DNA from: an uncultured Victivallales bacterium
GTDB taxonomy: Bacteria > Verrucomicrobiota > Lentisphaeria > Victivallales > CAZBDL01
Reading direction: 5' to 3'
DNA: 64,000 nucleotides
NCBI GenBank assembly: GCA_964490525.1
Contig: CAZBDL010000001.1
Coordinates: forward strand, 25,474 to 89,473
Shown here: positions 358 to 63,927 of the stretch, one piece after another
Numbering within the stretch: the first letter of the stretch is position 1
Layout of the letters: each line of letters opens with the position of its first letter
The notes under the pieces: model-generated
What the model was told of the DNA's origin: nothing
Seen by the model: only the letters and a program-made list of their open reading frames with translations
Database searches by the model: none
Translations under genes and position numbers: made by a program

Positions 358-627
358 CTACGCGACCAGTTCGGCACGCCGGATGTGGAAGACCGGCGGC
401 GGCGCCGAACCAGCCTCAAGATAGCTGCCCGTGACCCGGATCCGGTCCCCGAAGCGCAGGCGCTCCAGGATCGTCTCCGCCGGGTTTTTCATCGACACGA
501 GCGTATGCTGGGACAGCCGGATGCCCGGCTGCGTCTCCTTCTCCAGCATCGCCCGGGCCACCACCAGGTCGCCGCTCCGCTTCGCGCGGCCGAACGACAC
601 CATCTCGCAGGTCATCATCCTCATCAT
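358..627 (-). CDS. Hypothetical small protein (89 aa)
   Basis: Internal ATG at 627 of track ORF 358..888. It forms an ATGA overlap with the stop of the upstream gene (624-626), and a downstream TAGGAGGG junction leads into the next gene. Confidence 0.5.
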   Translation of the reverse strand: MMRMMTCEMVSFGRAKRSGDLVVARAMLEKETQPGIRLSQHTLVSMKNPAETILERLRFGDRIRVTGSYLEAGSAPPPVFHIRRAELVA

Positions 628-974
628 GGCGTCTCTCCTCCTTGTCCAATGGTTGATCCCTTCCTGTGCCCCGCGCCGTCCGACACCATCGCCAGGGCGA
701 ACTGCAGCTCGGCCATCAGCGGCTCCGAATACGGCAGGTCGGCCGCCGTCACCCCCGGGACCAGGCCCTCGGGCCCGCCCGCCTCGACCAGGAACTCCCC
801 GGCCTCCGAATCCCCCATCGCCTCCTGGCCGTGCGCCGTCAGCAGGATGCCCCCGGCGAAGGTGCCCGTGCGCTTCTCTTCGATGCACAGGGCAAGGTCG
901 CCGGCCCGGTGCAGGTCGCCGGCCCGCTTGCGGAACCTGTACACCCGGCCGGCCCGCATGGTCATTGCGCTCAT
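624..974 (-). CDS. Hypothetical protein (116 aa), C-terminal tail GQGGETP
   Basis: ATG at 974 is in frame with track ORF 624..1109 and overlaps the vWA gene stop (971-973) as ATGA. GC3-rich. Confidence 0.5.
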   Translation of the reverse strand: MSAMTMRAGRVYRFRKRAGDLHRAGDLALCIEEKRTGTFAGGILLTAHGQEAMGDSEAGEFLVEAGGPEGLVPGVTAADLPYSEPLMAELQFALAMVSDGAGHRKGSTIGQGGETP

Positions 975-2800
975 TGAAGGATTCCTCTCATTGATTCGTG
1001 GCGAAGGTCCTCGATGGCCGAACATAGCATCCCCCCCACCGTCCGCGCCACATCCACCGGGTTCAGCGTCCCCGTGAACACATGCTGGGGGAAAAGCTCC
1101 CGGGCGCACTCTCGGTATGCGGGGGCCACGTCGCCGATGATGGTCGCATAGGTCTTGATGCCATGGACCTGGCGCAGGAACTTCAGGCGCTCCTCGCAGA
1201 GGCTGACGTCATCGTCCATCAGCTCCGCATCGGTGAAGACAAAGACCAGGCGGGGGGAGTCATGATCCTCCGACATCAGGTCCTGGGCAATGCCGCAGAC
1301 GGCGTTTGAAAGGCTGGTCTCCCCGCACGGCGACGGCATGTTGCGCGGGCTCGGAAGGCGGTACAAGGCGTCGTTGAAGGCATAATGCACTTGGCCGATG
1401 CGGGACTCCGCCAGGGCCTTCTCGATGCCCGTGGCAAGATGGAACTGATTCTCCCAGTTGTCGGCGCCGGACATCGAGCTCGAAACGTCGTAGAGGAAGA
1501 TGGCCCGCATGCGGGCGTTCGGGTCGTGCAGCATCGTCCTCGTGACAAAGACCGGCGGATGCAGGTCGGCGGCGTAGAGGGGCAGCTCCGCCAGCCGCAG
1601 GTCGTCAAGGGCGCCGGAGCGGCTGAAGCGCGAATCCATCATGCGGTCCCCCGACGGACGGGGCAGAAGCCCCATCATCGTCTTCGCAATCGTCTCCCCA
1701 GCCGCGTCCATTTTCCGCCTGGAGTAGTTGTGGGCATCAATGACGGCGAGTGGAATGATGGTGAACATCACACCGCTCATGGACTCGATGCTGGTGCAGG
1801 TATGCACTTCTCCAGCTCCCCACTTGACGTGGCTGGAGAAATCGCGGGAAAGGACGCCCCCCGGCAGGGTCTTGCCCAGGAGGTTCTCCACCCGGTGGGC
1901 AACTTCCCCGGCGGTCGCGCCGGACTCTTCCTTCCCCTGCTTCCCGTCGGCCCCGGCGGCATCCAGGTCGACGTCGGCAATGTCGCCGGCCTTCGCCCCG
2001 GATTTGCCCTGCCCCTGGCCCGGGGCGGGCTTCCCGGCCGACTTCCCCTGGCCCTGTTCCTTGCCGTTGTCCTTGCCTTCGCCGGTCGAGCGCTCAATGA
2101 GCCGTTCGATGATCTCCATGGCCGTCTGGAAGCGTCCGGGCCGGCGGAAGATCCGATAGGCGAATTCCTGGAGCGTCTCGGCAACCACCGTGTCCTTCGG
2201 GGCCATCCCGTAGCGCAGGCAGCGCGCCGCCTCGTCGATCCGCCTGGCCACCGGGTTATTCCCCTGGTAGCCGTCATCGGCCTTGCCCGCCGCCGCGTAG
2301 TATTCCCGCAATAGCCATCCCTCGTCGACCAGCACGCAGCGGCGGGCCACGGCCGCCTCGACCGCCCAGTACATGGCGCCCATGATCGGATTGACGCCCT
2401 CCGCCTGGCTGCGGGTGAACGAGGCGTATTCCCGCGTCTCGTGGACCTTCGTCCACGCCAGCAACTGGCCGGCGATGACCCGGGGATCGTCATCCTTCGC
2501 GTTGATCCTCAACTTCGTCCCGTCGAAGGAGACCTGCGGCGTGTCTTCTGTGCATGAGGTGACAATCTCCACCTTCGCGCTGCGCCGGGTCCCCACGGCC
2601 AGGGGCGTGCGGGCCACCGCCGCCGCCTTGATGTAGCTGGCGGAATTGTCCTTCGGCATGAACCGGCCACGCCCCATCGCGCCGAACGCTGCGGTGAAGT
2701 GCGAGAAGGCCTCCTCCTCGGGAAGGCAGATCATGTCCTGCGTCCCCCGCTTCCGGGAGGCCAGGCCCGCCTGGTTGATGGAGTGGCGCCGGCGGCTCAT
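971..2800 (-). CDS. vWA-domain protein (CobT/VWA-type partner of the adjacent AAA+ ATPase)
   Basis: Has a MIDAS-like motif, FLYDVSSSMSG, in the C-terminal half. ATG at 2800 overlaps the stop of the AAA+ gene (ATGA). The N-terminal third of the 1038-aa track ORF 971..4087 is a shadow frame over the AAA+ gene. Confidence 0.7.
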   Translation of the reverse strand: MSRRRHSINQAGLASRKRGTQDMICLPEEEAFSHFTAAFGAMGRGRFMPKDNSASYIKAAAVARTPLAVGTRRSAKVEIVTSCTEDTPQVSFDGTKLRINAKDDDPRVIAGQLLAWTKVHETREYASFTRSQAEGVNPIMGAMYWAVEAAVARRCVLVDEGWLLREYYAAAGKADDGYQGNNPVARRIDEAARCLRYGMAPKDTVVAETLQEFAYRIFRRPGRFQTAMEIIERLIERSTGEGKDNGKEQGQGKSAGKPAPGQGQGKSGAKAGDIADVDLDAAGADGKQGKEESGATAGEVAHRVENLLGKTLPGGVLSRDFSSHVKWGAGEVHTCTSIESMSGVMFTIIPLAVIDAHNYSRRKMDAAGETIAKTMMGLLPRPSGDRMMDSRFSRSGALDDLRLAELPLYAADLHPPVFVTRTMLHDPNARMRAIFLYDVSSSMSGADNWENQFHLATGIEKALAESRIGQVHYAFNDALYRLPSPRNMPSPCGETSLSNAVCGIAQDLMSEDHDSPRLVFVFTDAELMDDDVSLCEERLKFLRQVHGIKTYATIIGDVAPAYRECARELFPQHVFTGTLNPVDVARTVGGMLCSAIEDLRHESMRGILQ

Positions 2801-3996
2801 GGCGTGACCCCCTCCTCGGCCGGTTGCGCCTGCGCGGCGGCGGCCCGCCGGCGACGGGGAGCCGGCGCGGCCTTCTCCTCCACCACGGTCCGGGGAATCG
2901 GGCCCAGCGTCGAGAGATCGCCGAACTGCGCGGCCAGGGCCGAGACCACCTTCTCGCGCGAGACGGCGGCTGTCCCGTCGCCCTCGGGGGCGTAGTAGTT
3001 GCTGACCGCATAGCGCAGCGCCGGACCGCCGCCCAGCGCCAGCGCCTCGGCCGCCACCAGCGACATGCGGATCGACCAGAAGCGGCCGGACGCCCCATGG
3101 GCGCCGAACTGCTCGGCCCGGACCGAATTCGCCACCTGCACCAGGCGCTTCGCCACGGCCTCGCCGATTCCCACTCCCCGCACGATGATCTCCGTCTCCT
3201 CGTCGATTGTCGGATAGCGGGTGTGCAGCACGAACTGGGTGCGGTCGACCAGGGCGATGTCCGCCCGGTCGCGAACGCCCGTGTACCCGCGCCCCTCGTT
3301 CATCGTCATGAACACCGCGATCCCCGTCCCGAGGCGCACGTCGCGGCCCAGCGCCTGGACGTGCGTGCGGCCGGAGAAGTCGAGCAGGGGCATGAGCGGA
3401 TTCAGCAGGCTGCTGTCCTGCACGCGGGTCACCTCGTCCAGCAGGACCACGCAGTCGCCCTTCTCCAGCGCCCGCATCAGGCTGGAGGGGTGGAACACCG
3501 TCTCGCCGTTCTCCAGCGCCCGCTCGCCGAACCACTTCTCCGTGTCGCGGATCGCCGAGCAGTCGATGCGCAGCAGGGGGAGCCCCTTCCGCGCCGCGTA
3601 CTCGTGGACGGAGATCGTCTTCCCGGTCCCGTGGTCGCCCTTGACCAGCCCGATCACCCGGCCCTTGTGGCGGCGGTACTCCTCGCAGAGCGAGAAGAAC
3701 TCCACCGTCTCCGGCGTGGGGAAGTAGTCCTTCGGGGCATCGACCTTGCCGATGAACTCGACCTCGCTGGCCCGGCGCTCGCGCGAGACCTTCACCGTGG
3801 TCGTGCTCCGGCTCACCTCCACGGCGTCGGCCTTCGCCGGCAGATCCCCCAACGACTCCATCGCCGGCGGCGGGGGGACGGAGGCATCCACCCGCGCCAG
3901 CATCTCCTGGTAGCGCACGATGAAGCCGACCGGGTTGCGCATCACCTCGTCGTAGAGCACCGGATCCGGCGCGACCGCTGGCATGGGACTGGTCAT
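2797..3996 (-). CDS. AAA+ ATPase, MoxR/CbbQ (AAA_5)-like
   Basis: Walker A GDHGTGKT and Walker B VVLLDEV. Paired with the downstream vWA gene, which is the classic MoxR-VWA arrangement. Tail AEEGVTP plus ATGA coupling. Confidence 0.75.
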   Translation of the reverse strand: MTSPMPAVAPDPVLYDEVMRNPVGFIVRYQEMLARVDASVPPPPAMESLGDLPAKADAVEVSRSTTTVKVSRERRASEVEFIGKVDAPKDYFPTPETVEFFSLCEEYRRHKGRVIGLVKGDHGTGKTISVHEYAARKGLPLLRIDCSAIRDTEKWFGERALENGETVFHPSSLMRALEKGDCVVLLDEVTRVQDSSLLNPLMPLLDFSGRTHVQALGRDVRLGTGIAVFMTMNEGRGYTGVRDRADIALVDRTQFVLHTRYPTIDEETEIIVRGVGIGEAVAKRLVQVANSVRAEQFGAHGASGRFWSIRMSLVAAEALALGGGPALRYAVSNYYAPEGDGTAAVSREKVVSALAAQFGDLSTLGPIPRTVVEEKAAPAPRRRRAAAAQAQPAEEGVTP

Positions 3997-5876: not shown

Positions 5877-6509
5877 ATGCAGACGAACCGCCACCTCGCC
5901 GAGAAGGAAGACTTCGCGTACGGGCTCCGCCGCCGGGATCTCGACCGCCTGCTGGAGAAGTACAGCAAGCAGGACATCATGAATCTGCACGAGGCCTGCG
6001 TGAGCACCCTCCCGCCGGCCACCGGCAACGGGCTCGGCACCGACCCCGCCGGCGTCCTCAACACCGGCTTCATCCTCGCCCAGCTCCGCGCCGACTTCCT
6101 CCAGCTCGACCTCGTGAACTCGTACCTGCCCGTGGTCACCTACCGCCAGGTCGAGGCCTTCGCCCTCTCCAGGAGCGAGCAGCTCGTCCTCCAGCGCCTC
6201 GTCCCGAACGTCCGCCACCGCACGAAGCAATTCCAGGAGTACCTGGTCAGCCGCCGCTACACGGGAACCGGGAACACGGCCCAGCGGAACATCGTCGTCC
6301 GCGCCTTCCAGGCCTTGGCCGGCCTGGTCCATCGCCTCCTCAGTCCCCAGGCACAGGTTCGCCATCTCTTCGCGCAGATCGTCGAGAAGACCAAGGCCGC
6401 CGGCATCCCCTGGGAGACCGCCGTGGCCCGCCGCCGCACCCACTCCCTCCGCAGCCGGGAGAACCCCGGGGAGGCCATGGACGCCAACGAGGGCGGCATC
6501 CGCATCTGA
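5877..6509 (+). CDS. Hypothetical protein (210 aa)
   Basis: First ATG downstream of the promoter, in frame with track ORF 5799..6509, and GC3-rich. Tail EGGIRI. Confidence 0.55.
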   Translation: MQTNRHLAEKEDFAYGLRRRDLDRLLEKYSKQDIMNLHEACVSTLPPATGNGLGTDPAGVLNTGFILAQLRADFLQLDLVNSYLPVVTYRQVEAFALSRSEQLVLQRLVPNVRHRTKQFQEYLVSRRYTGTGNTAQRNIVVRAFQALAGLVHRLLSPQAQVRHLFAQIVEKTKAAGIPWETAVARRRTHSLRSRENPGEAMDANEGGIRI

Positions 6510-6544: not shown

Positions 6545-6742
6545 ATGGCGAAGTGCAGCATGAAGACCGAGGTCTACAGCCGGGTGTGCGGCTATCACCG
6601 CCCCGTGCAGGCCTGGAACGGCGGCAAGAAGGCCGAATTCGAGGACCGGAAGGCGTATGCCCTGCCCAGCGTCCTGCCCCCGCGCCGCCGCGAGGCGGCG
6701 GAGTTTCCGGCCCAGGAAGAGGAAGTCTCCATCGCCGTGTGA
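6545..6742 (+). CDS. Small protein resembling the C-terminal glycyl-radical stub of class III RNR NrdD
   Basis: EVYSRVCGYHRPVQAWNGGKKAEFEDRK resembles the NrdD C-terminal R(V/I)CGY....WN.GK..E..DRK signature. The protein is only 65 aa and no nrdG is nearby. Confidence 0.45.
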   Translation: MAKCSMKTEVYSRVCGYHRPVQAWNGGKKAEFEDRKAYALPSVLPPRRREAAEFPAQEEEVSIAV

Positions 6743-6772: not shown

Positions 6773-7186
6773 ATGACGCAGCAGATGACCCTCCCCCTCT
6801 CGTTCGACCGGCCCGCCGGTCCCGCCGACTGGGCCGACCACATGGCGCGGGCCGAGACCTCCGAGCAGGCGGCGGCCATCCTGCGCACCATCGAGACCGA
6901 CCTGGCACGCATGGAACGCGAGGCCGGGCTCGGCGACATCCTGGAGCGGCATGGCATCCGCCGCTCGCTTCCCGAAGTCCTCCCCGGCGAATGGTATCGG
7001 CACATCGGCCAGGCCCCCCAGCGGCACCGTGTCCGGCTCGCCGAGGCCTACAACCTCGCCCAGGCCGCATTCCGCGAGCACGGGCTTCACCCCTATGGCA
7101 GGATCAACGAGGAGGCCGCCCGCTACGGCGCCCAGATCCAGCTTCCCCGCCAGGAGGACGAACCCGAATACGGCATCGCCGTCTAG
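6773..7186 (+). CDS. Hypothetical protein (137 aa), tail EPEYGIAV
   Basis: Complete track ORF, GC3-rich. Stop TAG followed by GAGA...ATG of the next gene. Confidence 0.55.
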   Translation: MTQQMTLPLSFDRPAGPADWADHMARAETSEQAAAILRTIETDLARMEREAGLGDILERHGIRRSLPEVLPGEWYRHIGQAPQRHRVRLAEAYNLAQAAFREHGLHPYGRINEEAARYGAQIQLPRQEDEPEYGIAV

Positions 7187-7196: not shown

Positions 7197-7619
7197 ATGG
7201 CCAATCAACCCGACCTCTTCGCCCCGTGCTTCCCGTCCCCGGCCGAGATCCCGGACTGGCGCCGGGTCATGCTCGACGCCGGGTCCGCCGACGAGTGCAG
7301 GCATGTCATCCGCAGCTTCGAGGCCTGGCTCCACGACCTGGAGGCTGCGGCCGGGCTCGATCCCCTGTGCGGCCCCGGCGGGTCGGGATCCTGGTTCCGG
7401 GGGCTGTCCACCATCACCGCCGAGGAGTTCCGCCAGCAAATCGCCAAGGCCCCGGACTACGCCCAGGACACCCTGGCGGCGGCCGTGGCCGTCTGCCGCA
7501 GCGCGGAAAAGGCCTTCCACGACCGGCACTACCCCGCCCAAAAGGCGGGCGAGACGGCCATCCCCTCATGCGACGGGGACGGCGAGGACATCGAGGCGGA
7601 ATACGGCATCGCCGTCTAG
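7197..7619 (+). CDS. Hypothetical protein (140 aa), tail EAEYGIAV
   Basis: ATG at 7197 in frame with track ORF 6951..7619, preceded by TAGGAGA. Same tail as the preceding gene. Confidence 0.55.
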   Translation: MANQPDLFAPCFPSPAEIPDWRRVMLDAGSADECRHVIRSFEAWLHDLEAAAGLDPLCGPGGSGSWFRGLSTITAEEFRQQIAKAPDYAQDTLAAAVAVCRSAEKAFHDRHYPAQKAGETAIPSCDGDGEDIEAEYGIAV

Positions 7620-7629: not shown

Positions 7630-7953
7630 ATGAACCCCAGGCCCGCACCCCTCCATTGGATCGAGGAGGCAAGGCACATCCATGACGGATGGCACTTCGA
7701 CCGCTTCCTGGCCGCCAAGCACGAATGGCTGACCCGGCGGCTCAACGAGGCGCATGTCCATGCCCCGGGGGCCTACCCCCTGGGCATCCACATCGCCCCG
7801 GCCATGCCCCCTTCCGCCTATCGGCAGCTCCTCCACGGCGCATCCCGGGAGGACGCCAACGAACTGTCCGCCGCCTACGAGGACCTCAAGCGCCTCCACA
7901 CCCTGCGCCGGGAAATCGGGCAGGACCAGGAAGGGCAGGGGATCGCACCATGA
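7630..7953 (+). CDS. Hypothetical protein (107 aa), tail EGQGIAP
   Basis: ATG at 7630 in frame with track ORF 6553..7953. ATGA overlap with the next gene. Confidence 0.5.
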   Translation: MNPRPAPLHWIEEARHIHDGWHFDRFLAAKHEWLTRRLNEAHVHAPGAYPLGIHIAPAMPPSAYRQLLHGASREDANELSAAYEDLKRLHTLRREIGQDQEGQGIAP

Positions 7954-8363
7954 GCAACCGCATCCGCATCATCGGCGAGGAGGCGTTCCTCGAAGCCCAC
8001 GGCGCCGGCATGGCCGACCTCGGGGACCCGTCCCTCCACCGCCTTCCCGGCCTGCATGACCATCACCCCGCCAGGCTTTCCGCCATCCGGCGCCAGGCCG
8101 CCGCCGACCATGCCTGGCAGGAGCGACGCCAGGCCCTGCGCCGGGAATACGCGGAGCAGGTCGCACGCGGGGCCATCCGCCCCCCCACGCGCACGGAACG
8201 GCTGCTGGCGACCGCCCAGGGCCACCCGGACAACGCCTCCGTGCAGGCGGCCCGCCGCCTCCTCGGACGGATGGGCGTCGACTGGAACCGTGCCGGGGAC
8301 GCAAGCCCCGGCAATGCCTACATCGAGATGGCCGAACAGGAACTTCCGGGAATCTCCCCATAG
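7950..8363 (+). CDS. Hypothetical protein (137 aa), tail LPGISP
   Basis: ATG at 7950 in frame with track ORF 7689..8363. Translationally coupled. Confidence 0.5.
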   Translation: MSNRIRIIGEEAFLEAHGAGMADLGDPSLHRLPGLHDHHPARLSAIRRQAAADHAWQERRQALRREYAEQVARGAIRPPTRTERLLATAQGHPDNASVQAARRLLGRMGVDWNRAGDASPGNAYIEMAEQELPGISP

Positions 8364-8375: not shown

Positions 8376-10010
8376 ATGAAGATCAACGACTACGGCGAGA
8401 AGATCGGCGGGGCCCGCAAGGACCTCTGGCGCGAGGCCCTGGGACGCGGGGAGCTGGAATCCGTCGACCGGGCGGACTGGGCCCAGGCCGTCAACAAGGC
8501 CAACATCTGGCCCGCCCCCGACTGGAAGGCCCTGGTCGAGGCCGGCTCCGATCCCGTCGGCGCCTACCTGGTCAAGCTGGTCTACGACGCCATCCCGAAG
8601 ACCCCCCCCGCCAACCTCCGGGCCGAGCAGGAGGAGCGCTTCATGCGGGCCTATGTGGGCCTGGTCTCCTGCCTCCGCACCCTGATCGAGAGCCGCCTCC
8701 CCATCCTGGAGGCCGATCCGGCCATCCGCGAGATCCGCGACCTGGCCCGCAGCAAGCTGCCCCAGGACGCCTACGCCATCGCACCCGCCCGCCTGCGCAA
8801 CGCCCTCTTCTACCACCGCCGCCATGCCGCCGAGCGCCATGTCCAGGACACCGGCTGGCCCAACCAGAAGCCATGGGCCAAGGCGTTCCGCGTGGCTCCG
8901 GTCGGCGGCGAGTTCTTCGTGGTCAAGCCCGGCAACATCATCGCCGCCGGCCCGTTCCCCTCGCACGCCGAGGCCACCACGGCCGCCGACACCCTCTGGA
9001 CGCAGGCCCGCGACGCGGCCGCCAAGGAGCGCAACGGCATGGCCCGCCCTGTCGCCAAGGGCATGCCGCGCACCGGCCCCGACCGGCGCAACGGCACCAA
9101 CGTCGGCCCCGAGGACTTCGCCCGCGCCTTCGGGTTCCGCGCCGTGGAGTTCGGCAACTGGGAGAGCCAGGACGACCGCCAGGGCAACCTCAACGCCGCC
9201 TTCGACGCCTTCCATGACCTCGCCGAGGCCATCGGCATCCGCCCCGGGGACCTGAGCCTCGGCGGGACCCTGGCCATCGCCTTCGGCTCCCGGGGCCGGG
9301 GCGGCGCGGCCGCCCACTACGAGCCGGGCCGCAAGGTCATCAACCTCACCCGCGACAGCGGAGCCGGCTGCCTGGCCCACGAGTGGGCCCACGCGCTCGA
9401 CAACCACCTCGCGGTCGCCGCCGGCGGCAGCTCCGGCGCCTACGCCTCCGAGATGCGCGGCACCGGCACCGCCCTCCAGTCCATGCACGATGCCGTCCAC
9501 GCCATGGGCCGCACCTTCGAGCCGGCCGCCGACATCGAGGTCCGCCACCGCAGGAACGTGGCCGAGGTCGAGCAGGTCCGCCGGGAATCGAAAAGCCCCT
9601 GGGAGCAAAACCGCTGCTGGAAGTGGCTCGCCCGCGCCGAGGGCCAGATGATGGCCATCCGCAAAGCCGGCGGCGCCTGGACCGAGACCCGCTTCCTCGC
9701 CGCCGCCAAGTCGCGCGGGGCCTACTGGCGCAAGGGCGCCGAGATGTTCGCCCGCTCCTTCGAGGCGCATGTGGAGGACACGCTGACCTCCGCCGGCCGG
9801 TTCTCTCCCTACCTCGTCCAGGGCACCGCCCCCGGCGATGACGGGTTCCGCTCCATGTACCCGGCCGGGCGCGAGCGCAACGACATCGGCCGGGCCGTCC
9901 AGGCCGTGGTCGGCGACCTTCGCCACCGCCTCCGCAAGCTCGACATCGACCGCCCCATCGCGATTGCGCCAATCACCCAGGAACAGGAGGCCGTGTCATG
10001 GACCGTCTGA
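8376..10010 (+). CDS. Zincin-like metallopeptidase-motif protein (HExxH), of the polyvalent or conjugative-element type
   Basis: AAAHYEPGRKVINLTRDSGAGCLAHEWAHALDNHL contains HEWAH. 544 aa, with SD GGAGGA upstream. Confidence 0.5.
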   Translation: MKINDYGEKIGGARKDLWREALGRGELESVDRADWAQAVNKANIWPAPDWKALVEAGSDPVGAYLVKLVYDAIPKTPPANLRAEQEERFMRAYVGLVSCLRTLIESRLPILEADPAIREIRDLARSKLPQDAYAIAPARLRNALFYHRRHAAERHVQDTGWPNQKPWAKAFRVAPVGGEFFVVKPGNIIAAGPFPSHAEATTAADTLWTQARDAAAKERNGMARPVAKGMPRTGPDRRNGTNVGPEDFARAFGFRAVEFGNWESQDDRQGNLNAAFDAFHDLAEAIGIRPGDLSLGGTLAIAFGSRGRGGAAAHYEPGRKVINLTRDSGAGCLAHEWAHALDNHLAVAAGGSSGAYASEMRGTGTALQSMHDAVHAMGRTFEPAADIEVRHRRNVAEVEQVRRESKSPWEQNRCWKWLARAEGQMMAIRKAGGAWTETRFLAAAKSRGAYWRKGAEMFARSFEAHVEDTLTSAGRFSPYLVQGTAPGDDGFRSMYPAGRERNDIGRAVQAVVGDLRHRLRKLDIDRPIAIAPITQEQEAVSWTV

Positions 10011-10735
10011 CGATGCGCCGCTACCTCTCCGCCCCCCTGATCTGCTCCCCCGGCGGCTGGGCCGACACCCTTCCGTCCTGGATGCGCCGCCAGGCGGCCC
10101 AGGAGCGCGTCCTCGTCGCCGCCGGCCTGATGCCCGGGCACATCGTCGGCCCCACCGAGGTCCTCGTGCTGCTGCACGGGGCGGCCATGGCCGGCCCCCT
10201 CTCCCACGGCGACGCCATGGTGTTCTCCTGGGCGATGATGCGGGCGCACGAAAGCCGGTTCGGCAAGGGCTCCCCGAAGATGGCCGAGATCCAGGCCATC
10301 ATGCCCGACGCGCCGGGCGACGCCGACATCCTTGCCCCCAACGGACGGTTCTCCATGGAATACCGGCGGGTCGCCGGCGGTATACTCTCCGCCGCCACCC
10401 GGAAGAACAAAGGAAAGGAGCAGGACATGTCCCCCCAGCTCGTCTCCCTGGTCGAAGCCCTCGTCGAGGTCCGCAGCATGTGCGGCGACGAGCGCGGCTG
10501 CATCTCCCAATGGCAGGACGACACCGGCCAGCGCCTCTCCCCCGAGAACCGCTCCCTCGTCCTCGACCTGTTCGAGGCACGTTGGCGCGAGGCGCAGCGC
10601 GGCGCAGGCGTGCGCAATCCCCTCACGCCGGCGGAACGGGAGCATGCCCGCTCCATGCTGGAAGGGAAGGATATCGACCAGCAGAAGTCAAGTTGTCTAG
10701 CGGTGGACGAGGACACCCCCTCCATCGCCATGTGA
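9998..10735 (+). CDS. Hypothetical protein (245 aa), tail DTPSIAM
   Basis: Complete track ORF with AGGAGG upstream. Overlaps the previous gene by 13 nt. Confidence 0.5.
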   Translation: MDRLTMRRYLSAPLICSPGGWADTLPSWMRRQAAQERVLVAAGLMPGHIVGPTEVLVLLHGAAMAGPLSHGDAMVFSWAMMRAHESRFGKGSPKMAEIQAIMPDAPGDADILAPNGRFSMEYRRVAGGILSAATRKNKGKEQDMSPQLVSLVEALVEVRSMCGDERGCISQWQDDTGQRLSPENRSLVLDLFEARWREAQRGAGVRNPLTPAEREHARSMLEGKDIDQQKSSCLAVDEDTPSIAM

Positions 10736-10767: not shown

Positions 10768-11244
10768 ATGATGCTCAAGTTCGACCGTGCGAAGGTGGAG
10801 GCGCTGCTGAAGGCGGAGACGGCCCGCGAACCGGGCATGATCCCGTACACCGGCAGCGGATGGGGACGCCCCGAGACGCGCGGGCACGGCCTGAACCTGG
10901 TCGGCGACCAGGGCGTATACCTGGTCTGCAACTCCCCGCGACCCGACGGGAAGTGCCCGGCGAAAAGCGGCGACATCGCCTACGCCGCCAATTGCGACCC
11001 GACAACGATGGCGTTCGAGGACTGGTACGGGGCGAAGGAACGGAGCTTCGGCAGCGACGATGGCGTCGAGTTCATCCCCGCCGACAACATCCGCGCCTGG
11101 CTCGAGAACACCCAGGCCCCCATGGCCAGGATCGACATCGGGCCGAAGCAGTTTAGCCTTTGCCCGTCGTTCAGCCGTCCATCCCATGCCGCCAAGAGGG
11201 AAATGGAGCAGGCAGCCGCGCAGGAGCCCGCCATCACCCCCTGA
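10768..11244 (+). CDS. Hypothetical protein (158 aa), tail EPAITP
   Basis: ATG at 10768 in frame with track ORF 9838..11244. SD AAGGAAGGAA upstream. Confidence 0.5.
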   Translation: MMLKFDRAKVEALLKAETAREPGMIPYTGSGWGRPETRGHGLNLVGDQGVYLVCNSPRPDGKCPAKSGDIAYAANCDPTTMAFEDWYGAKERSFGSDDGVEFIPADNIRAWLENTQAPMARIDIGPKQFSLCPSFSRPSHAAKREMEQAAAQEPAITP

Positions 11245-20975: not shown

Positions 20976-20976
20976 C

Positions 20977-52672: not shown

Positions 52673-53733
52673 CCGGACGCGATGTCCTCGCCTGGGCCAA
52701 CCGCCCCGTCAACAAGGGCCTGATCATCACCCTCGCGGTGGTGGGCATCGTCCTGCTGCTCAAGCAGACCGGCGGGCTGGACAGGATGCTCGGCCGCAAG
52801 CCCGCCTCCGCCAGGGCCTCGGCCGGGGCCGCGTCGGGGGCCACCGACGCCACCGGGTTCAACCTGACCACCACCCGGTCCAGCACCGACTTCGGCCGCG
52901 TCTCCGCCGTGCGCGACGTGCCCGCTCCCCCGCCCGCACCGCAGCCGCGCCCCGCCGCGCCCACGCCGGCCCCGCCGCCAACCCGGCAAGAGCCGCAGAG
53001 GCCGCAGCCCCCGCCCGTGCTCAACCTCTTCACCCGGCCGGCGCAGTCGGGCCAGTCCATCGACCTGGCGAAGCGCTACGCCCCCTTCGGGCGCCTGGTC
53101 GAGTGCCAGCTCGTCATGACCATCGACTCCGCCTACGCCGACACCCCCATCATCGGCATGGTCACCAAGGACCTCTGGCATAACGGCGAGCTGGTCATCC
53201 CCGCCGGCGCCGAGGTCCACGGCCGCGCCATCAACAAGCCCGTCCGCGACCGCATCATGGCCCAGCAGAACTGGGTCGTGGTCTGGCGCACCCGCTCCGA
53301 CGACAACGGCAAGGAACTGAGGCTCACCGGCCTGGCCCTCACCAAGGAGGCCCTCCTCGGCGAGCAGTCCTGGCACCTCCACGACGGCTCCGCCGGCATC
53401 CGGGGCGAGGTCATCAAGAGCGACGAGTGGACCGAGCTGATGGCCTACGCCGCCCAGTTCCTCGCCACCTTCGCCGAGAACCTCAACCGGGAGGAGGTCA
53501 TCATCACCGACTGGGGGCAGACCACCATCAAGCCGGGCGGCACCAAGGCCGCCCTCAACGAGGGCATCGCCGCCGCCACCCGCGAATACGCCAACAAGCT
53601 CCTCGACGAGGTCAAGAACCAGGGCTACTTCGTCCGCTGCCCCGGCGGCACCGAATTCTACCTCTACGTCACCGACGTCGTCAACATGAACGAGGCTTCC
53701 GTCGCCGGAACCCGCGTCAACCAGTCGCGCTAG
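52669..53733 (+). CDS. VirB10/TrbI-like protein
   Basis: N-terminal TM (LIITLAVVGIVLLL), a proline-rich linker (PAPPPAPQPRPAAPTPAPPP) and a C-terminal domain, RLVECQLVMTIDS...PIIGMVT...ELVIPAGAEVHGR, matching the TrbI pattern. Confidence 0.75.
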   Translation: MTGRDVLAWANRPVNKGLIITLAVVGIVLLLKQTGGLDRMLGRKPASARASAGAASGATDATGFNLTTTRSSTDFGRVSAVRDVPAPPPAPQPRPAAPTPAPPPTRQEPQRPQPPPVLNLFTRPAQSGQSIDLAKRYAPFGRLVECQLVMTIDSAYADTPIIGMVTKDLWHNGELVIPAGAEVHGRAINKPVRDRIMAQQNWVVVWRTRSDDNGKELRLTGLALTKEALLGEQSWHLHDGSAGIRGEVIKSDEWTELMAYAAQFLATFAENLNREEVIITDWGQTTIKPGGTKAALNEGIAAATREYANKLLDEVKNQGYFVRCPGGTEFYLYVTDVVNMNEASVAGTRVNQSR

Positions 53734-54464: not shown

Positions 54465-55367
54465 GTGCCAGCCGACACCGGACACCTGAGGGCCATGGAG
54501 GGATTCCTCCGGGAGAACATCATCGGCCAGGACGACGCCCTGGCCATGATCTGCCGCGTCGTCGTCCGCTGCGAACTGGGCCTCACCTCCCCCGACCTGC
54601 CCAAGGCCTCCTTCGTCCTCTTCGGCCCCACCGGCGTCGGCAAGACCGAATCCTGCCTGCTCCTCGCCGAGCACCTCTACGGCGACCGCCAGGCCCTCCT
54701 GCGCTTCGACATGAGCGAATTCATGCTCATGGAGGCCGCCCCCGTGTTCCTCGACCGCATGCAGTTCCTCTCCACCCCCCGCGAGGCCACCGGCGGCATC
54801 CTGCTCTTCGACGAGATGGAGAAGGCCCACCCGCGCATCCTCGACTTCTTCCTCCAGATCCTCTCCGCCGCCAGGCTCACCTACGCCGACCACACCGTCG
54901 GGCGCCTCCACAACTTCTACATCGTCTTCACCTCCAACCTCGGCTCCGAGATCCTCGCCGAGCTGCGCTCCTCCCGCCTCCCCTACACCGTCCTGGAGAA
55001 GGCCGTCCTCTCCCGCGCCGCCGCCGAGCTGCGCCCCGAGTTCTTCGGCCGAATCCAGAACAAGATCGTCTACCGCCGGCTCGACCCCGCCAGCCAGCGC
55101 CGCATCGCCGCCCTCCTCCTCGGGCGGGAGACCGAGCGCTGGGGCGTCGGCCACGACGCGGCCGCGCTAGAGCTCATGGTCCGCCGGGGCACCGACCCGC
55201 GCTATGGCGCCCGCCCCATGCGCAACACCGTCGAAAGCCATGTCCGCGACGCCCTCGCCGTCCGGATCATGCAGGGCGGGGATCCCGCCGGCGCCGTCCT
55301 CACCGGCGACGAGCAGCGCCTCTACGCACCCACCCCAGCACAGGAGCCCCCCGATGCCGCCGAATGA
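54465..55367 (+). CDS. Stand-alone ClpA/ClpB D2-like AAA+ ATPase (300 aa)
   Basis: IIGQDDALAMI...KASFVLFGPTGVGKTESCLLLAEHLYG...LLRFDMSEFM matches the Clp/Hsp100 second nucleotide-binding domain. A sensor-2-like GARPMRN is present. GTG start preceded by GGAGGAAGTAGCC. Confidence 0.75.
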   Translation: MPADTGHLRAMEGFLRENIIGQDDALAMICRVVVRCELGLTSPDLPKASFVLFGPTGVGKTESCLLLAEHLYGDRQALLRFDMSEFMLMEAAPVFLDRMQFLSTPREATGGILLFDEMEKAHPRILDFFLQILSAARLTYADHTVGRLHNFYIVFTSNLGSEILAELRSSRLPYTVLEKAVLSRAAAELRPEFFGRIQNKIVYRRLDPASQRRIAALLLGRETERWGVGHDAAALELMVRRGTDPRYGARPMRNTVESHVRDALAVRIMQGGDPAGAVLTGDEQRLYAPTPAQEPPDAAE

Positions 55368-56490: not shown

Positions 56491-56904
56491 ATGCAAATTG
56501 CGAAGATTATGCCGAGTAATGGTGTCAGCGCTGAATACTGGAACCTGCTAGGCGTTGTCGGGAGCGAGAGATTCACCCGTGGGCATCGGCGGGACCGGCA
56601 AGGGGATGTCATCGAGGTGGATATTAAGCCCGAGGCGGTGATTGAATTCTTCCAGAACCAAGAGTTTTTCTCGCGCGATGATGCAAGCGGGGGACGTCGC
56701 TTGTGCAAGTCGCTGCGCGTCCCCGTATCGTGCCTCGCTTTTGCGGAGCACACAGAAGACCATGCCATGAACCACCGCATCCGCACATCCGCCGACGATC
56801 CCGAGTCGATCCTGACCACGGAGCATCCCGCATCCAGCCATGGGCCGGAAGGCCCCAGGCTCCCGGCGCGGGAGATGGATTGCGGGGAGGGCATCGCCCC
56901 ATGA
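56491..56904 (+). CDS. Hypothetical protein (137 aa), tail GEGIAP
   Basis: ATG at 56491 is preceded by AGGGAGAAGGG. Alternative starts at 56446 and 56464. Confidence 0.45.
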   Translation: MQIAKIMPSNGVSAEYWNLLGVVGSERFTRGHRRDRQGDVIEVDIKPEAVIEFFQNQEFFSRDDASGGRRLCKSLRVPVSCLAFAEHTEDHAMNHRIRTSADDPESILTTEHPASSHGPEGPRLPAREMDCGEGIAP

Positions 56905-57281: not shown

Positions 57282-57565
57282 CCCGGAACAACTCCTACCG
57301 CAGCGTCGAGTACGCCGGCCGGTCCTGGTGCCACCAGCAGGCCCAGGGCCTGCTCAACGCCGCCGGCGCACGGGGCCAGGTCAAGACCGAGTGCATCCAT
57401 GGAGCCTGGTTCGCCACCATCCATGACCACCAGGACCGGAAAAGCGGCCTCGGCCACGGCAAGACCCTCTTCGAGGCCATGTGCAACGCCATCGAGCGGG
57501 CCACCCCCGTGACGGTGCCGCCACCGGCCCCGGTTGAGGAGCAGGAACAGGGGATTGCCCCGTGA
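57278..57565 (+). CDS. Hypothetical protein (95 aa), tail EQEQGIAP
   Basis: ATG at 57278 (ATGA overlap), in frame with track ORF 56840..57565. Confidence 0.5.
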   Translation: MTRNNSYRSVEYAGRSWCHQQAQGLLNAAGARGQVKTECIHGAWFATIHDHQDRKSGLGHGKTLFEAMCNAIERATPVTVPPPAPVEEQEQGIAP

Positions 57566-59104: not shown

Positions 59105-59106
59105 CC

Positions 59107-59748: not shown

Positions 59749-61329
59749 ATGCGCTCCGAACAAGAGTTGATCGCGATGTCCCTTGCCTTGATAGGGGGGC
59801 AGGTTGGGTTGTCAGTCGCTGAGCGAATACTGGCAAGTTCAGTTGTTGGTATAACTCCCAATGCGCGTGACGTTAATTCCTTTCGCAGTCGGATTATTTC
59901 AGGAAATGATCCTCTTGGCGAAGCGTTTACAATGATTCGGTCGGCTCAAAAGCGTCGTGTTACTGGCGCTGTCCTTACGCCGCATCAAATCGTTAATTCA
60001 ATAGTAAAATGGCTATTAGGCCAAGGGACACCGGCTCGTATCATAGATCCAGGTGCCGGGTCGGGGCGATTCATCTTGGCGGCAGGTAAGGCGTTTCCTA
60101 ATGCTCAACTCGTGGCGGTCGAAAAGGATCCACTGGTGGCGTTGATGGTACGCGCCAACCTACATGTGTGTGGATGGATGAAGCGGTCAACTATTGTCGT
60201 AAATGACTATCGCCAGGTAAAATTACCGCGTTGCAACGGGATGACTGCTTTCATCGGCAATCCACCCTATGTGCGCCACCATGACATCGGCGAGAAATGG
60301 AAAGCCTGGTACTCGGCTAAATTTACCCAATATGGCATCAAGGCCAGCGAGTTGGCGGGTTTACATCTGCACTTTTTCCTACAAACTCGCATGTTAGCCC
60401 AGCATGGAGATATTGGCGCATTCATTACCTCAGCCGAATGGATGGATGTCAATTATGGGTATGCCCTACGCATGCTTTTGATTAAAGAACTCGGGGGAAT
60501 TGCGTTGCATGTATTGGAACCAACCGTCGCCGCCTTTCCTGGTACAGCCACTACGGCGGCAATTACATGTTTCCATGTTGGCGAAGCAGTTCGCCCGATT
60601 CGTGTACGTTCGGTCGCAAAGTTGAATAGACTGAACGGATTAACCAATGGCGTTGATGTTACACGGGAGCGCTTGCAGGCCGAACCACGTTGGTCAATCA
60701 TTGTGCGCCCCGCTGCGGTTGCCAGCGGGGGGGAGATTGAGTTGGGAGAACTTTTTCGGGTGCATCGAGGTCAGGTTACCGGTGCAAACGATATCTGGAT
60801 TGTTGGCGAGCACGCCAAGAGGCTTCCTGAACGCATAAAAATACCCTCTGTCACTAAGGCAAAGGATTTGATTCAGGCAGGTGCAGCCCTTAACTCAGAT
60901 CAGGTCTTGCGCCGCGTCATCGACTTGCCTCCTGATTTGGATGAATTCACTGGGGAAGAGCAGAAGAACATTGAAGCATTCCTTGTTTGGGCTAGAGCAC
61001 AAGGGGTTGACAAGGGCTATGTTGCCCAACATCGCAAAGCATGGTGGTCGGTTGGCCTCAAGTCCCCAGCGCCTATCCTTTGCACTTATATGGCACGTCG
61101 GCCGCCACAATTCACCTTAAATGCCTGTAGTGCGAGGCACATCAATGTGGCGCATGGACTCTACCCCCATGGTAATCTTCCAGATGTCCTTATGTCCCGC
61201 CTTGTAGCATGGCTGAACGAGAACATCAAAATAGGAAGCGGCAGAACTTATGCAGGCGGTCTGACGAAGTTCGAGCCAAGGGAGATTGAGCGCCTACGCA
61301 TACCAAGCCCTGCAACCCTTACCGCATGA
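59749..61329 (+). CDS. N6-adenine DNA methyltransferase (gamma-class, Eco57I/TaqI-like)
   Basis: SAM-binding motif I IIDPGAGSGRFILAAG and catalytic motif IV FIGNPPYVRHH. Lower-GC region. Confidence 0.85.
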   Translation: MRSEQELIAMSLALIGGQVGLSVAERILASSVVGITPNARDVNSFRSRIISGNDPLGEAFTMIRSAQKRRVTGAVLTPHQIVNSIVKWLLGQGTPARIIDPGAGSGRFILAAGKAFPNAQLVAVEKDPLVALMVRANLHVCGWMKRSTIVVNDYRQVKLPRCNGMTAFIGNPPYVRHHDIGEKWKAWYSAKFTQYGIKASELAGLHLHFFLQTRMLAQHGDIGAFITSAEWMDVNYGYALRMLLIKELGGIALHVLEPTVAAFPGTATTAAITCFHVGEAVRPIRVRSVAKLNRLNGLTNGVDVTRERLQAEPRWSIIVRPAAVASGGEIELGELFRVHRGQVTGANDIWIVGEHAKRLPERIKIPSVTKAKDLIQAGAALNSDQVLRRVIDLPPDLDEFTGEEQKNIEAFLVWARAQGVDKGYVAQHRKAWWSVGLKSPAPILCTYMARRPPQFTLNACSARHINVAHGLYPHGNLPDVLMSRLVAWLNENIKIGSGRTYAGGLTKFEPREIERLRIPSPATLTA

Positions 61330-62252
61330 CCACTTCACCTACACAATGGACCGACGAAGAGTTCTTTGCGAATGTCGCTGTTGCCGTCGCTCGGTTCAGG
61401 GACGAACGCTTAGCGGTGTCGGATTCATGGTCGGAGAATTATAGGTCGGCGCGGGGGAAATTTGACCTATTGTTCCAGAAATTGAGCGATTTAAACCCAG
61501 AGGTCATTACCAACCACAACCTGGCAGAAGTCTACGGCAATGGACTGGGCGAAGCCTTACGGTATTTGGCAGGCCCCCCCATCTCGGATGACGACCTACA
61601 AGTGTTAGCCGATGTGGATTCGATGGCACCTAGTGTCCTAATGGAAAACCCTGCTTCGCTTCGGATGGTGTTTGATGTCATTGCGCGTGTAATTGACCCC
61701 CACCGTTTCCCATGGATTGTAAACGGATCTATGCCGACTACGCAGCAGAAGGAAGCAGCCCTCCTGGCTTCATCTGTGTTGTTGGCAGCACAGCGCGTTG
61801 CAACGGAACGGCGAATGGATGTCAAGGCAAGACAGGAACAAGAGGTAAAAGACTACCTAAACACTATTGGTTATCAGGAAGTCCAGCCTGTTGAAATCAA
61901 CACAATTATGAACGGCCCCCGGGGCGGGGAGTTTTGTGCAGAATGCAAGCTGGGAGACAGGAAGGCCGATGTGGTCTTGCGACTAAACGACAGCCGACTC
62001 ATGGCAATCGAATGCAAGGTGTCAAACAGTGCCACCAACAGCGTAAAACGTCTCAATAATGATGCCGCCGCAAAAGCTAGACATTGGTTGCAAATATTCG
62101 GGACGATGCAGGTTGTACCGTCCGCTATGCTTGCTGGCGTTTTCAAGGTGATAAACCTAAAACAAGCACAGAGCCAGGGGCTTGCAATATTCTGGTCTCA
62201 TGATCTTACAAAACTTGGGGAGTTCATTGAGTCAACGAATGGACACGGATAA
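61326..62252 (+). CDS. Putative type II restriction endonuclease (PD-(D/E)XK), partner of the methyltransferase
   Basis: ATGA overlap with the MTase gene. ADVVLRLNDSRLMAIECKVS fits D...ExK. Same low-GC composition. Confidence 0.6.
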   Translation: MTTSPTQWTDEEFFANVAVAVARFRDERLAVSDSWSENYRSARGKFDLLFQKLSDLNPEVITNHNLAEVYGNGLGEALRYLAGPPISDDDLQVLADVDSMAPSVLMENPASLRMVFDVIARVIDPHRFPWIVNGSMPTTQQKEAALLASSVLLAAQRVATERRMDVKARQEQEVKDYLNTIGYQEVQPVEINTIMNGPRGGEFCAECKLGDRKADVVLRLNDSRLMAIECKVSNSATNSVKRLNNDAAAKARHWLQIFGTMQVVPSAMLAGVFKVINLKQAQSQGLAIFWSHDLTKLGEFIESTNGHG

Positions 62253-63063: not shown

Positions 63064-63088
63064 ACCAGATCCGAGATGAACGTGGGCA

Positions 63089-63108
63089 CCCCTCCCCTGC
63101 GGGAGGGG
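63089..63108. terminator. Perfect 8-bp GC hairpin between convergent genes (CCCCTCCC-CTGC-GGGAGGGG)
   Basis: Seen directly. No U-tract on either strand. 26 nt downstream of the mini-array. Confidence 0.4.
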
Positions 63109-63120
63109 CGCCCGCCGGGG

Positions 63121-63927
63121 CTATTCCCGGCCGACGGCCTCCAGGAACTCCTCCCCGTCTGGGGTGAGGTTCAGGGCGGCGTCGCGCACGTCCTTGCCGG
63201 CGTCCAGGCAGAAGCACTTGTGGCCTGGCCCGGTGAGGTAGCCGCGCTTGTGCAGCTCGTGGAACTCGTTCAGGCGCTCCAGGGGCACGTTGAGCCAGGA
63301 GCAGAGGCGGTCCACATCGCGCAACGCCCGGACCTCCCAGGTGTCGGGAACGTCCCTCTCCCGTGTCCCGTCCAGCTCGATCACCGTCGGCCGCCGGGTT
63401 GCCGTTCCCGGGAACAGCTCCCAGGCGCTGCACCAACGGTCGCCGCCGGCGCGTTCCCTGGCCGCCCGGGAGCGGATCCCTCGCGCCGTAGTGAGGAAGG
63501 GGCCCTCCCAGGTGCCGCGCTCGCCCTCGCCCGAGAGCAGGAACCAATGCCTCCGGGGCGTGCCGCCCTTGGCGCCGTTCGCCCGGCTGGCGGCCCGCTT
63601 CGCCGGTGTCCGGGCCTTTCCTCCGACCTGCCCGCCCTTGCGGCCGAGGATCGCGGCGGGCGACTCCTCCTCGCGGACGAAGACGACGTCGCTGCCGACG
63701 CCCTGGCAGTACACTTGGTCGCCAAGGCGAAGGACCGTATGTGCGGCATCGGCCGAGACCAACGTTCCACCCCAGGACTCCTCGTCATTCAGGTCAATCC
63801 CTGCGGCGGCCGCTCCCTCGTCGGTCCAGGATTCGCGGTTGACCTCGAAGTCGTCCTTGCGGATCGTCCACCAGTCGAACGTGGCCGCGAAGACCACCCG
63901 ATACGCCTTGATCTGCTGCCCCTTCAT
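63121..63927 (-). CDS. Hypothetical protein (268 aa)
   Basis: Complete track ORF, GC3-rich. ATGA overlap with the upstream partial gene. Confidence 0.55.
   Translation of the reverse strand: MKGQQIKAYRVVFAATFDWWTIRKDDFEVNRESWTDEGAAAAGIDLNDEESWGGTLVSADAAHTVLRLGDQVYCQGVGSDVVFVREEESPAAILGRKGGQVGGKARTPAKRAASRANGAKGGTPRRHWFLLSGEGERGTWEGPFLTTARGIRSRAARERAGGDRWCSAWELFPGTATRRPTVIELDGTRERDVPDTWEVRALRDVDRLCSWLNVPLERLNEFHELHKRGYLTGPGHKCFCLDAGKDVRDAALNLTPDGEEFLEAVGRE

Follow-up and report, generated by a model that had tools for sequence, protein, structure and literature searches.

We describe here a short motif that recurs at the extreme C-termini of many proteins encoded by a 64,000 nt stretch of DNA from an uncultured Victivallales bacterium (contig CAZBDL010000001.1, positions 25,474 to 89,473 of the forward strand; the window, below, is this whole stretch). 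Codon-usage gene calling on the window, whose G+C content is ~67%, gave 72 genes, and the C-terminal statistics refer to 71 called proteins. Pfam matches among these proteins include two Rep3 initiators, a VirD4/TraG-type type IV coupling protein (T4CP; 33502-35697), a VirB4/TraC-like ATPase (38652-41642) and a TrbI/VirB10-like protein (52669-53733), the last three on the plus strand, and because of this content the window is assigned to a conjugative plasmid. Further genes encode ParA and a neighboring helix-turn-helix (HTH) protein, Cas5d-Cas8c-Cas7 of type I-C and a restriction-modification pair, and the transfer operon includes a stand-alone 300 amino acid AAA+ ATPase that resembles the second nucleotide-binding domain (NBD2 or D2) of ClpB/ClpC (54465-55367, plus strand). 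The plasmid has no close relative in the plasmid, phage and genome-contig collections searched: megablast of two window segments against plasmid and phage collections gave no match, tblastn of one tailed window protein against plasmids gave none, and a scan of a genome-contig collection with the window T4CP found no relative. The closest database VirB4 is 28.7% identical and lies on an Opitutaceae (Verrucomicrobiota) plasmid, and the closest T4CPs come from metagenomes and a metagenome-assembled Victivallales genome. The host probably falls within the PVC (Planctomycetes-Verrucomicrobia-Chlamydiae) superphylum or close to it. NCBIfam scans of the unassigned proteins that flank the T4CP gave no matches. 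Three related plasmid fragments (L002, L003 and L006) were found, all in one Joint Genome Institute metagenome; two of them, L002 and L003, are syntenic with the window and their proteins are mostly 50-85% identical to those of the window, and the L006 T4CP and VirB4 are 69% and 84% identical to the window's, respectively.

The recurrent unit is a short linear motif (here called the tail) at the extreme protein C-terminus, carried on a flexible extension behind unrelated folded domains. It follows the rule [D/E/Q]3-5-[G/S]-[I/M/V]-[A/T/S/R/K]-[P/V/I/M]-COOH, in which an acidic or Gln run of 3-5 residues (from -9 to -5) precedes Gly or Ser at -4, Ile, Met or Val at -3, a small or basic residue at -2, and Pro, Val, Ile or Met with its free carboxylate at -1. 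A loose form of the rule describes the ends of 27 of the 71 window proteins, and its frequency at internal positions predicts 0.52. To avoid circularity, a position-specific scoring matrix (PSSM) was trained solely on the tails of L002, L003 and L006, with its threshold at the 99.5th percentile of 17,366 internal 8-mers; 27 of the 71 window C-termini lie above this threshold (0.36 expected), and the scores are bimodal (7.1-19.8 for tails and 2.1 or less for the remainder). A six-frame scan of the window for a tail followed by a stop codon returned 28 units, which are the 27 called-gene ends and an orphan at 27237, and no off-frame unit. The residue counts in the 27 tails are P17 V5 M3 I2 at -1, A11 T6 R4 S3 K3 at -2, I17 M5 V4 W1 at -3 and G21 S4 A1 T1 at -4, with Glu in 16 at -6. 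The mean net charge over the last 12 residues of the tailed proteins is -2.3, and disorder-promoting residues make up a fraction of 0.71 of the 26 residues preceding the tails vs 0.60 of the gene bodies. After trimming of the tails, BLASTP placed 28 tail proteins (these 27 and a weak QEGVHP variant on a RadC protein) in 27 families, and a shared C-terminal domain of paralogues was rejected on this ground; a PEP-CTERM or sortase-type sorting signal was rejected as there is no transmembrane segment. A place within the last ~10-30 residues, an unstructured extension and unrelated carriers are the general features of C-terminal signals for type IV secretion systems (T4SSs), and the tail has all three.

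The individual tails divide by stop codon as follows (PSSM scores are given after the coordinates, and all but one tail are on the plus strand). Eight end in TGA at an ATGA overlap with the next start: PAEEGVTP (2797-2823, minus strand; 9.3) of an AAA_5 (MoxR-like) ATPase (2797-3960) whose L002 orthologue ends in VAEGIAP, QEGQGIAP (7927-7953; 15.4), LEEEGIAP (11582-11608; 13.8), IEEKGITP (13104-13130; 13.5), PQEEGIAP (13670-13696; 15.9) of gene 13127-13696, LYEAGVKP (51643-51669; 7.1), which is borderline and lies within the transfer operon, LHEEGITP (52646-52672; 8.7) of the gene immediately 5' of trbI, and DCGEGIAP (56878-56904; 9.6). Ten end in TAG: EPEYGIAV (7160-7186; 14.8), after which the Shine-Dalgarno (SD) sequence of the next gene lies past the stop, EAEYGIAV (7593-7619; 12.7), QELPGISP (8337-8363; 13.9), EEEAGISP (14482-14508; 17.4) of an ART-PolyVal protein (13693-14508) at an operon end that is followed by a convergent rep gene, DDQGGVAM (25142-25168; 9.4) of a DUF3846-like protein, EDQGGVTM (25629-25655; 10.7), DQNQGISP (25871-25897; 16.2), EPEATMRP (26828-26854; 8.3), ESDEGMKV (27149-27175; 11.6) and HEDGGMRP (31140-31166) of a putative relaxase. 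Nine end in a non-overlapping TGA: ANEGGIRI (6483-6509; 10.0) of gene 5877-6509, EEEVSIAV (6716-6742; 15.0) of a 65 amino acid protein like the glycyl-radical end of NrdD (6545-6742), the variant QEAVSWTV (9984-10010; 8.1) of an LPD1/HExxH protein (8376-10010), EDTPSIAM (10709-10735; 11.2), AQEPAITP (11218-11244; 11.6; its Pro codon is CCC) of a DUF3085 protein (10768-11244), EEEQGMRI (12022-12048; 17.1), EDEPSIAP (27687-27713; 16.8) at an operon end followed by a convergent gene, GEGEGMKP (36264-36290; 8.5) of an HTH_17/MerR-like protein adjoining parA, and EQEQGIAP (57539-57565; Pro codon CCG), which has the top score of 19.8. The EDEPSIAP peptide is identical in L002 and L006, and the DNA that encodes it differs synonymously. 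An earlier reading of this DNA without database searches (the sequence-only reading) had tabulated such ends by stop coordinate, and every tail that it listed is present at its coordinate; however, two of its entries are not members of the set, EEGRG (63924, minus strand) being a plain in-frame SD with ATGA and GGETP (624, minus strand) having a PSSM score of 2.1, and QEGVHP (3993, minus strand) of the RadC protein is a weak variant (PSSM 1.6). The tail is also frequent in the related plasmids, where it is carried by 19 of 29 genes in L002, 16 of 19 in L003 and 7 of 22 in L006, with TAA stops also present and with the variants IAI, MTP, MSV, LSV and IGV.

Two carriers illustrate how the tail is attached. 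Most of the best 150 DUF3085 homologues (among 1.8 billion representatives) end a few residues past the domain, and one of these 150 has a clearly tail-like end (…QRGIRI) and one an arguable one (…KQMTP); the window DUF3085 protein has a ~27-residue extension that bears its tail. An AlphaFold2 model of the LPD1 protein from a 75-sequence alignment (mean predicted local distance difference test score, pLDDT, 90.3) has a fold that stops near residue 521, and its last 8 residues have values below 50. The HExxH motif of this protein (H335-E336-x-x-H339) is invariant across the 75 homologues. The modelled fold is confident and looks novel, and a Foldseek search of the PDB with it gave nothing significant (anthrax lethal factor matched weakly). 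We take the protein to be a probable zincin-like peptidase of the kind present in polyvalent proteins.

About 40% of the plasmid's proteins are tailed. The carriers are stand-alone modules of the kinds found in polyvalent proteins or next to them, namely LPD1 (Pfam E-value 3e-16), ART-PolyVal (2e-9), RadC (2e-20), DUF3085 (2e-16), DUF3846 (5e-6) and AAA_5, together with the 65 amino acid glycyl-radical 'spare part', many small proteins of unassigned function and the putative relaxase. LPD, ART-PolyVal and RadC are domains of the 'polyvalent proteins', for which Iyer et al. (2017, PMC5512222) predict delivery with the DNA; the same paper names ArdC and TraC1 as proteins that are transferred in conjugation. 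The module repertoire of polyvalent proteins is found among the tail carriers of this conjugative element. Proteins without a tail include both Rep proteins, Cas5, Cas8 and Cas7, ParA, the T4CP, VirB4, TrbI, the Clp-like ATPase and most of the products of the 38.4-50.6 kb block, and we regard VirB4 and TrbI as controls. The match of the 65 amino acid protein to the anaerobic ribonucleotide reductase NrdD (Pfam 3e-10) is confined to the C-terminal glycyl-radical segment, and the protein resembles the GrcA/YfiD 'spare part' proteins; it is conserved, with its tail, in L002 and L003 (SIAV, SIAI and SVAI).

The carrier of most interest is the 348 amino acid product of gene 30120-31166 (plus strand), which lies four genes upstream of the T4CP gene and is probably, to judge from its motifs and profile matches, a MOBP/MOBQ-like relaxase. 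A relaxase is the one protein that every conjugative system must export, and so is the canonical substrate. MOBP/MOBQ relaxases have an N-terminal catalytic Tyr and an HxDxxxNxHxH metal-binding motif. In the window protein's family, Y24 and H121-D122-T124-D125-N126-H128-H130 are invariant in three orthologues, and the motifs recognized are SFS at 72-74 and GRHDxTDNKHFHLVVCP with H121-D-x-T-D-N-K-H-F-H130 in it; the protein's three motifs presumably parallel those of RP4 TraI, a parallel that we use as a lead and not as a test. The sole Pfam match, in two orthologues, is to PF03432 (MobA/VirD2 relaxase) at sub-threshold E-values of 0.056 and 0.08. The top tblastn match in plasmids is an annotated relaxase, and hhalign aligns the two with a probability of 93.8% (E 1.8e-7) over 46 columns that cover the metal-binding motif; a profile search of the PDB found no match. 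The orthologues end in GGGMRP (L002) and DAGITP (L006).

Do other elements mark their proteins in a similar way? The homologues of the LPD1 protein fall into several C-terminal classes (...[D/E]xSR, DYDYDYV/EYDY, GQLxLF, VEL...APxP and, in Opitutaceae, MPPLP-x10-13-Arg-rich), and within an element neighboring genes have the same class of C-terminus. Of the 79 proteins of the Opitutaceae TAV5 plasmid (CP007054.1; loci L004 and L005), 15 end in LP-x7-15-Arg/Lys-rich (1.4 expected), and on Oleiharenicola sp. Vm1 CP180536.1 (L010) 6 of 27 have an LP...Arg/Lys-rich tail, the LPD1 protein among them; examples of these (M)PPLP/LP...Arg/Lys-rich tails are ...LPTAQKTQRSGRSRP and ...MPPLPTAAGNAATRTQRR. 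The L010 DUF3085 protein has a Pro-/Lys-rich end (…APKKPARGK) that is outside the 6 scored, and at a further locus (L011) the products of 9-10 of 15 genes close with a polar run and Arg. The TAV5 plasmid shares the window's type of secretion system, with VirB4 (the 28.7% identical homologue above), a T4CP, TrbI and a Clp-like ATPase, and its shared tail is basic and resembles the Agrobacterium VirB/D4 signal. These comparisons suggest that element-specific C-terminal tags may be widespread.

We favor, at somewhat better than even chances, the view that the tail is a translocation or recruitment tag for the plasmid's T4SS, possibly read by the T4CP or by the ClpB-D2-like AAA+ ATPase. A component of the T4SS would bind the tail and so recruit the tagged proteins, which would then be exported into the recipient cell alongside the DNA; the cargo would be the putative relaxase and about 25 accessory, anti-defence-type proteins, and the ATPase, besides being a candidate reader with the T4CP, could also unfold the cargo. 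The sequence-only reading had offered a shared acidic C-terminal signal as an alternative to its main explanation, and this is the reading that the evidence favors, with type IV secretion as its likelier use. Legionella DotM, for comparison, reportedly binds the acidic Glu-rich C-terminal signals of effectors. A role for DotM in effector recruitment to the type IVB system is described in PMC5802825, type IV secretion substrates need unfolding for transfer (PMC5826034), and conjugation of plasmid pED208 transfers at least 16 plasmid proteins (PMC8406263, PMC11288057). The ATPase gene is two genes past trbI; its product matches PDB entries at E 4e-42 and the NCBIfam ClpB family at 1e-52, and has intact Walker A and B motifs with AAPVFL in place of the GYVG pore loop. 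A 33% identical homologue on the TAV5 plasmid (L004 1049-2101) lies a few kb from the TrbI homologue.

Four other explanations have to be weighed, and in two of them the tail is selected as DNA. The sequence-only reading had interpreted the unit as a translational-coupling cassette boundary, with the peptide incidental: an SD read in frame, then a conserved spacer (ATCGCCCC) and an ATGA overlap, recurring at over 20 gene junctions. That description fits a third of the tails (LEEEGIAP at 11608 matches its DNA consensus exactly) and not the remainder. GAGGAGG does encode Glu-Glu-Gly 8-9 nt before the overlapping ATG at 8 junctions, GGNATCRCCCCATGA is enriched in the window (9 matches with at most two mismatches vs 2.3 expected), and a terminal Pro fits a CCA-TGA overlap. 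However, in a listing of the final 10 codons, stop codon and 3' context of every window gene, 19 of the 27 tails have no start overlap, including the 10 with TAG, after several of which the next gene's SD lies past the stop (for example ...GGCATCGCCGTC TAG GAGAACCCCCATG), the terminal Pro codons are CCA, CCG and CCC, and 14 of the 22 ATGA junctions are untailed although they have an in-frame SD (for example IGGK, RSVE, ETQP and EEGRG). The observation that tails persist at operon ends was correct, in that no same-strand gene follows those at 14508 and 27713 and the next start after 57565 is 31 nt off; tails at the first two sites are to be expected because the motif is a peptide, and no transcription terminator was detected 3' of the tail at 14508. 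In 32 orthologue pairs, with the last seven residues taken as the tail, residue identity is 73% in tails and 68% in gene bodies, and substitutions in the tails stay within the classes I/V/M/L, A/T/S/R/G and P/V/I/M. At identical residues the codon differs at 23% of tail vs 28% of body positions, so there is no constraint on the DNA beyond that on the protein, and the extra synonymous-site conservation that would point to selection on DNA is not seen in these pairs; the relatives' tails also use TAA stops and other codons. The DNA consensus is a by-product, because at 67% G+C Gly-Ile-Ala-Pro is nearly always encoded by GGN-ATC-GCC-CCN, and an ATGA overlap dictates CCA for Pro and lets the Glu-Glu-Gly codons (GAGGAGGG) double as the next gene's SD. 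The spacer is therefore conserved, as had been claimed, through amino-acid selection and codon bias and not through a requirement at the DNA level. Coupling through an in-frame SD, found at 22 junctions of which 8 are tailed, leaves the peptide, the TAG and TAA tails and the operon-end tails unaccounted for, and we give it next to no chance as the cause of the motif. The orthologue comparisons instead indicate that the tail is selected as protein, not DNA, and that translational coupling is secondary. A second DNA-level idea, also raised in the sequence-only reading, is that the tail DNA is maintained as a microhomology recombination site for cassette shuffling between plasmids. Gene 13127-13696 (189 amino acids) is present in the window and L003 and absent in L002, and both ends of this indel (window 13095-13716 vs L002 10745-10800) lie inside a 15-nt tail/ATGA repeat, GG(G/T)ATC(A/G)C(N)CCATGA, and the repeat therefore acts on occasion as microhomology, as a side effect. 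In the window a second gene has lost all but its start codon and tail to a deletion, and this is the origin of the orphan SEEPSITP (27211-27237, plus strand, TGA), which had been noted as a unit with no ORF of its own. It is a deletion remnant and not a separate element: its gene is intact in L006 (3143-3826, 227 amino acids, tail SEDPTITP), the window site keeps the preceding gene's end, the ribosome-binding site, an ATT in place of the ATG start and the final ~10 codons, and the intergenic sequence 3' of the orphan is conserved. Two such events are nevertheless what any short gene-end repeat would be expected to give, most tails differ at several nucleotides, the DNA is conserved no more than the protein requires, and the restriction to amino-acid classes is left unexplained; the one clear gene-sized indel thus stands as a by-product, and maintenance of the tail for recombination is, in our estimate, very improbable.

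The other two explanations accept the tail as a peptide and give it a reader outside the secretion channel. One is a degradation or unfolding tag read by an AAA+ protein (host ClpXP, ClpAP, Lon or Tsp, or the plasmid's ClpB-D2-like ATPase), which would limit the lifetime of the tagged proteins in donor cells, or once the plasmid is established, with no export. AAA+ proteases classically recognize C-terminal tags that end in a hydrophobic residue with a free carboxylate (ssrA, ...LAA); the plasmid encodes a 300 amino acid ATPase with intact Walker motifs, and leading-region and anti-defence proteins have to be present for a short time only. On the other hand the tail differs from known C-degrons, including the ssrA/ClpX C-motif with its non-polar ...(L/A)AA-COOH end and ClpP-coupled unfoldase, in having Pro at -1 in 17 of 27 cases and an acidic run before it, and the plasmid ATPase (which is of the ClpB/ClpC-D2 type) does not retain the canonical GYVG pore loop and is located in the transfer operon. 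Its homologue on the Opitutaceae plasmid accompanies a basic shared tail, so the Clp-like ATPase does not track tail chemistry, and a tag on the relaxase suits export better than destruction. We consider a degron unlikely. The remaining possibility is a docking motif for a hub other than the channel, such as the LPD1/HExxH protein, a PDZ- or TPR-like carboxylate clamp or a mimicked host protein, through which the accessory proteins would be assembled or regulated together. An acidic run followed by hydrophobic-x-hydrophobic-COOH resembles PDZ class II ligands, the EEVD/TPR motifs and the acidic C-terminal tip of SSB. The LPD1 protein with its invariant HExxH sits in the middle of a tagged cluster, and a metallopeptidase is the hub domain in polyvalent proteins (PMC5512222). 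Yet the Pfam scan of ~60 window proteins showed no PDZ or TPR domain, the -1 residue is V/I/M in 10 of 27 tails and Pro in 17, unlike a PDZ class II ligand, the LPD1 protein itself bears a variant tail and its fold search gave nothing significant, and a peptidase model explains neither the extreme C-terminal placement nor the tag on the relaxase. Such a hub, too, has in our judgment only a small chance of being the explanation.

To return to the type IV secretion tag, how does it compare with systems that are already known? The Dot/Icm (type IVB) signals of Legionella and Coxiella likewise lie at the C-terminus in an unstructured stretch, are acidic with hydrophobic residues close to the end, and occur on many unrelated substrates of one system; they are read by a coupling complex, whereas here the reader is a candidate only. 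The Dot/Icm E-block is a Glu-rich block at about -10 to -17. The tail differs from it in being shorter and more stereotyped (Gly at -4, Ile at -3, Pro or Val at -1), with its acidic run at -5 to -9, and it marks plasmid conjugation accessory proteins and a putative relaxase rather than eukaryote-directed effectors. Pfam and NCBIfam scans of the window proteins gave no match to the DotM or IcmS/W families, and the E-block class was excluded on the position of the acidic run and this lack of a match. In the Agrobacterium VirB/D4 system an Arg-rich C-terminal signal is common to VirD2, VirE2, VirE3 and VirF (Vergunst 2005, as cited in PMC8406263), and it is positively charged according to the citing passages of PMC8406263 and PMC11288057. 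The plasmid is like that system in placing one short C-terminal signal on a (putative) relaxase and on accessory proteins, and unlike it in the opposite charge, the G-I-A-P core and the proportion of tagged genes, about 40% as against a handful; the Arg-rich class was excluded by the mean net charge of -2.3 over the last 12 residues. The 'LP...Arg-rich' tails of the Opitutaceae plasmids do have the positive charge and closely parallel the VirB/D4 signal. The 'conjutome' of the F plasmid pED208 (PMC8406263, PMC11288057) includes many co-transferred maintenance and anti-SOS proteins, some with C-terminal signals, and is similar in kind to the cargo proposed here, for which transfer is a proposal; F signals, however, are heterogeneous (positive, hydrophobic or internal) and have no common sequence, and the window has one consensus. 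Finally, polyvalent proteins (PMC5512222) contain the same domains (LPD1, LPD5, ART-PolyVal, RadC and the HExxH peptidase) with the same predicted role as early effectors, but in them the domains form one giant fusion with a single delivery and a peptidase, and here they are separate genes, each with its own tail. On this analysis the tail probably works like the known C-terminal type IV secretion signals, outside the E-block and Arg-rich classes, a statement that we make with limited confidence. A ~9-residue, sequence-explicit tag on ~40% of the genes of a replicon appears to be undescribed in the literature searched, as do the parallel tags in other lineages and a Clp-like ATPase in such transfer systems.

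Several points weigh against a type IV secretion tag. Known type IV secretion signals are looser, or differently placed or charged. Both the tail receptor and translocation itself are things we infer from sequence comparison, and for the receptor there are candidates only. Tails are present on proteins that are likely to act in the donor, namely the HTH/MerR-like protein adjoining parA and two transfer-operon gene products (stops at 51669 and 52672). The relaxase call depends on motifs and sub-threshold matches (PF03432 at 14.1 bits vs a cut-off of 24.6), and a single-sequence AlphaFold2 model of the protein is unusable (pLDDT 39). The Opitutaceae motif was defined post hoc, as were those of L010 and L011. 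Host-wide use of the tail is disfavored only indirectly, by the 44 untagged genes of the same replicon and by untagged homologues elsewhere.

Which proteins accompany conjugative DNA, and how the coupling protein selects them, are largely unresolved questions in the field, and the known T4SS signals (positive charge, Glu-rich blocks, internal domains) are loose and poorly predictive; the window by comparison presents a crisp ~9-residue consensus on 27 unrelated proteins, and other families of elements have tags of their own that are just as stereotyped. If the tail is an export tag, the exported 'conjutomes' of uncultivated plasmids could be predicted straight from sequence, and the tag suggests why some elements might split 'polyvalent' effectors into separate genes. 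In this secretion system from the PVC superphylum, the Clp-like ATPase would be a candidate for unfolding the substrates. A broader model, which we put forward tentatively and at somewhat less than even chances, is that in several lineages of conjugative elements short, lineage-specific C-terminal 'zip codes' bring a large cargo of proteins into the mating channel; the code would here be (D/E)3-5-G-I-A-P-COOH, read by a PVC-type T4SS with a dedicated ClpB-D2-like unfoldase, and split genes with tags would be an alternative to polyvalent fusion.

Some other features of the plasmid are recorded here. The two tandem Rep3-family initiator genes (14521-16023 and 16531-18057, minus strand) are only ~30% identical overall, and the complete identity of their last 10 residues (RRGRPRKADR) and of the 15-nt 3' flank (ACTTCTGGCGGTCTA) suggests that the 3' end was recently exchanged or duplicated. 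A low-G+C island at 59749-62252 (52% vs 67% overall) contains the restriction-modification pair, an Eco57I/N6-type methyltransferase and a XamI-family restriction endonuclease, and was likely acquired recently. The type I-C CRISPR-Cas system (18805-23768) is minimal, with cas5d, cas8c/csd1 and cas7 followed by an array of 23 repeats of CCTTCGCCTCGCACGCGAGGCGCGGATTGAAAC (22254-23738); cas3, cas1, cas2 and cas4 were not seen within the window. For spacer 17 (23344-23376) there is a match within the plasmid itself, of 27 of 27 nt to an intergenic region at 29807-29833 with mismatches only in the first 5 nt of the spacer, and the target lies directly upstream of the putative relaxase operon; the match could reflect self-regulation by a nuclease-less Cascade or be a relic of rival-plasmid targeting. 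Degenerate, GGTTCCC-rich direct repeats of 27-29 nt, in 3 copies each, occupy positions 24240-24530, past the CRISPR array and before the following cluster of tagged genes.

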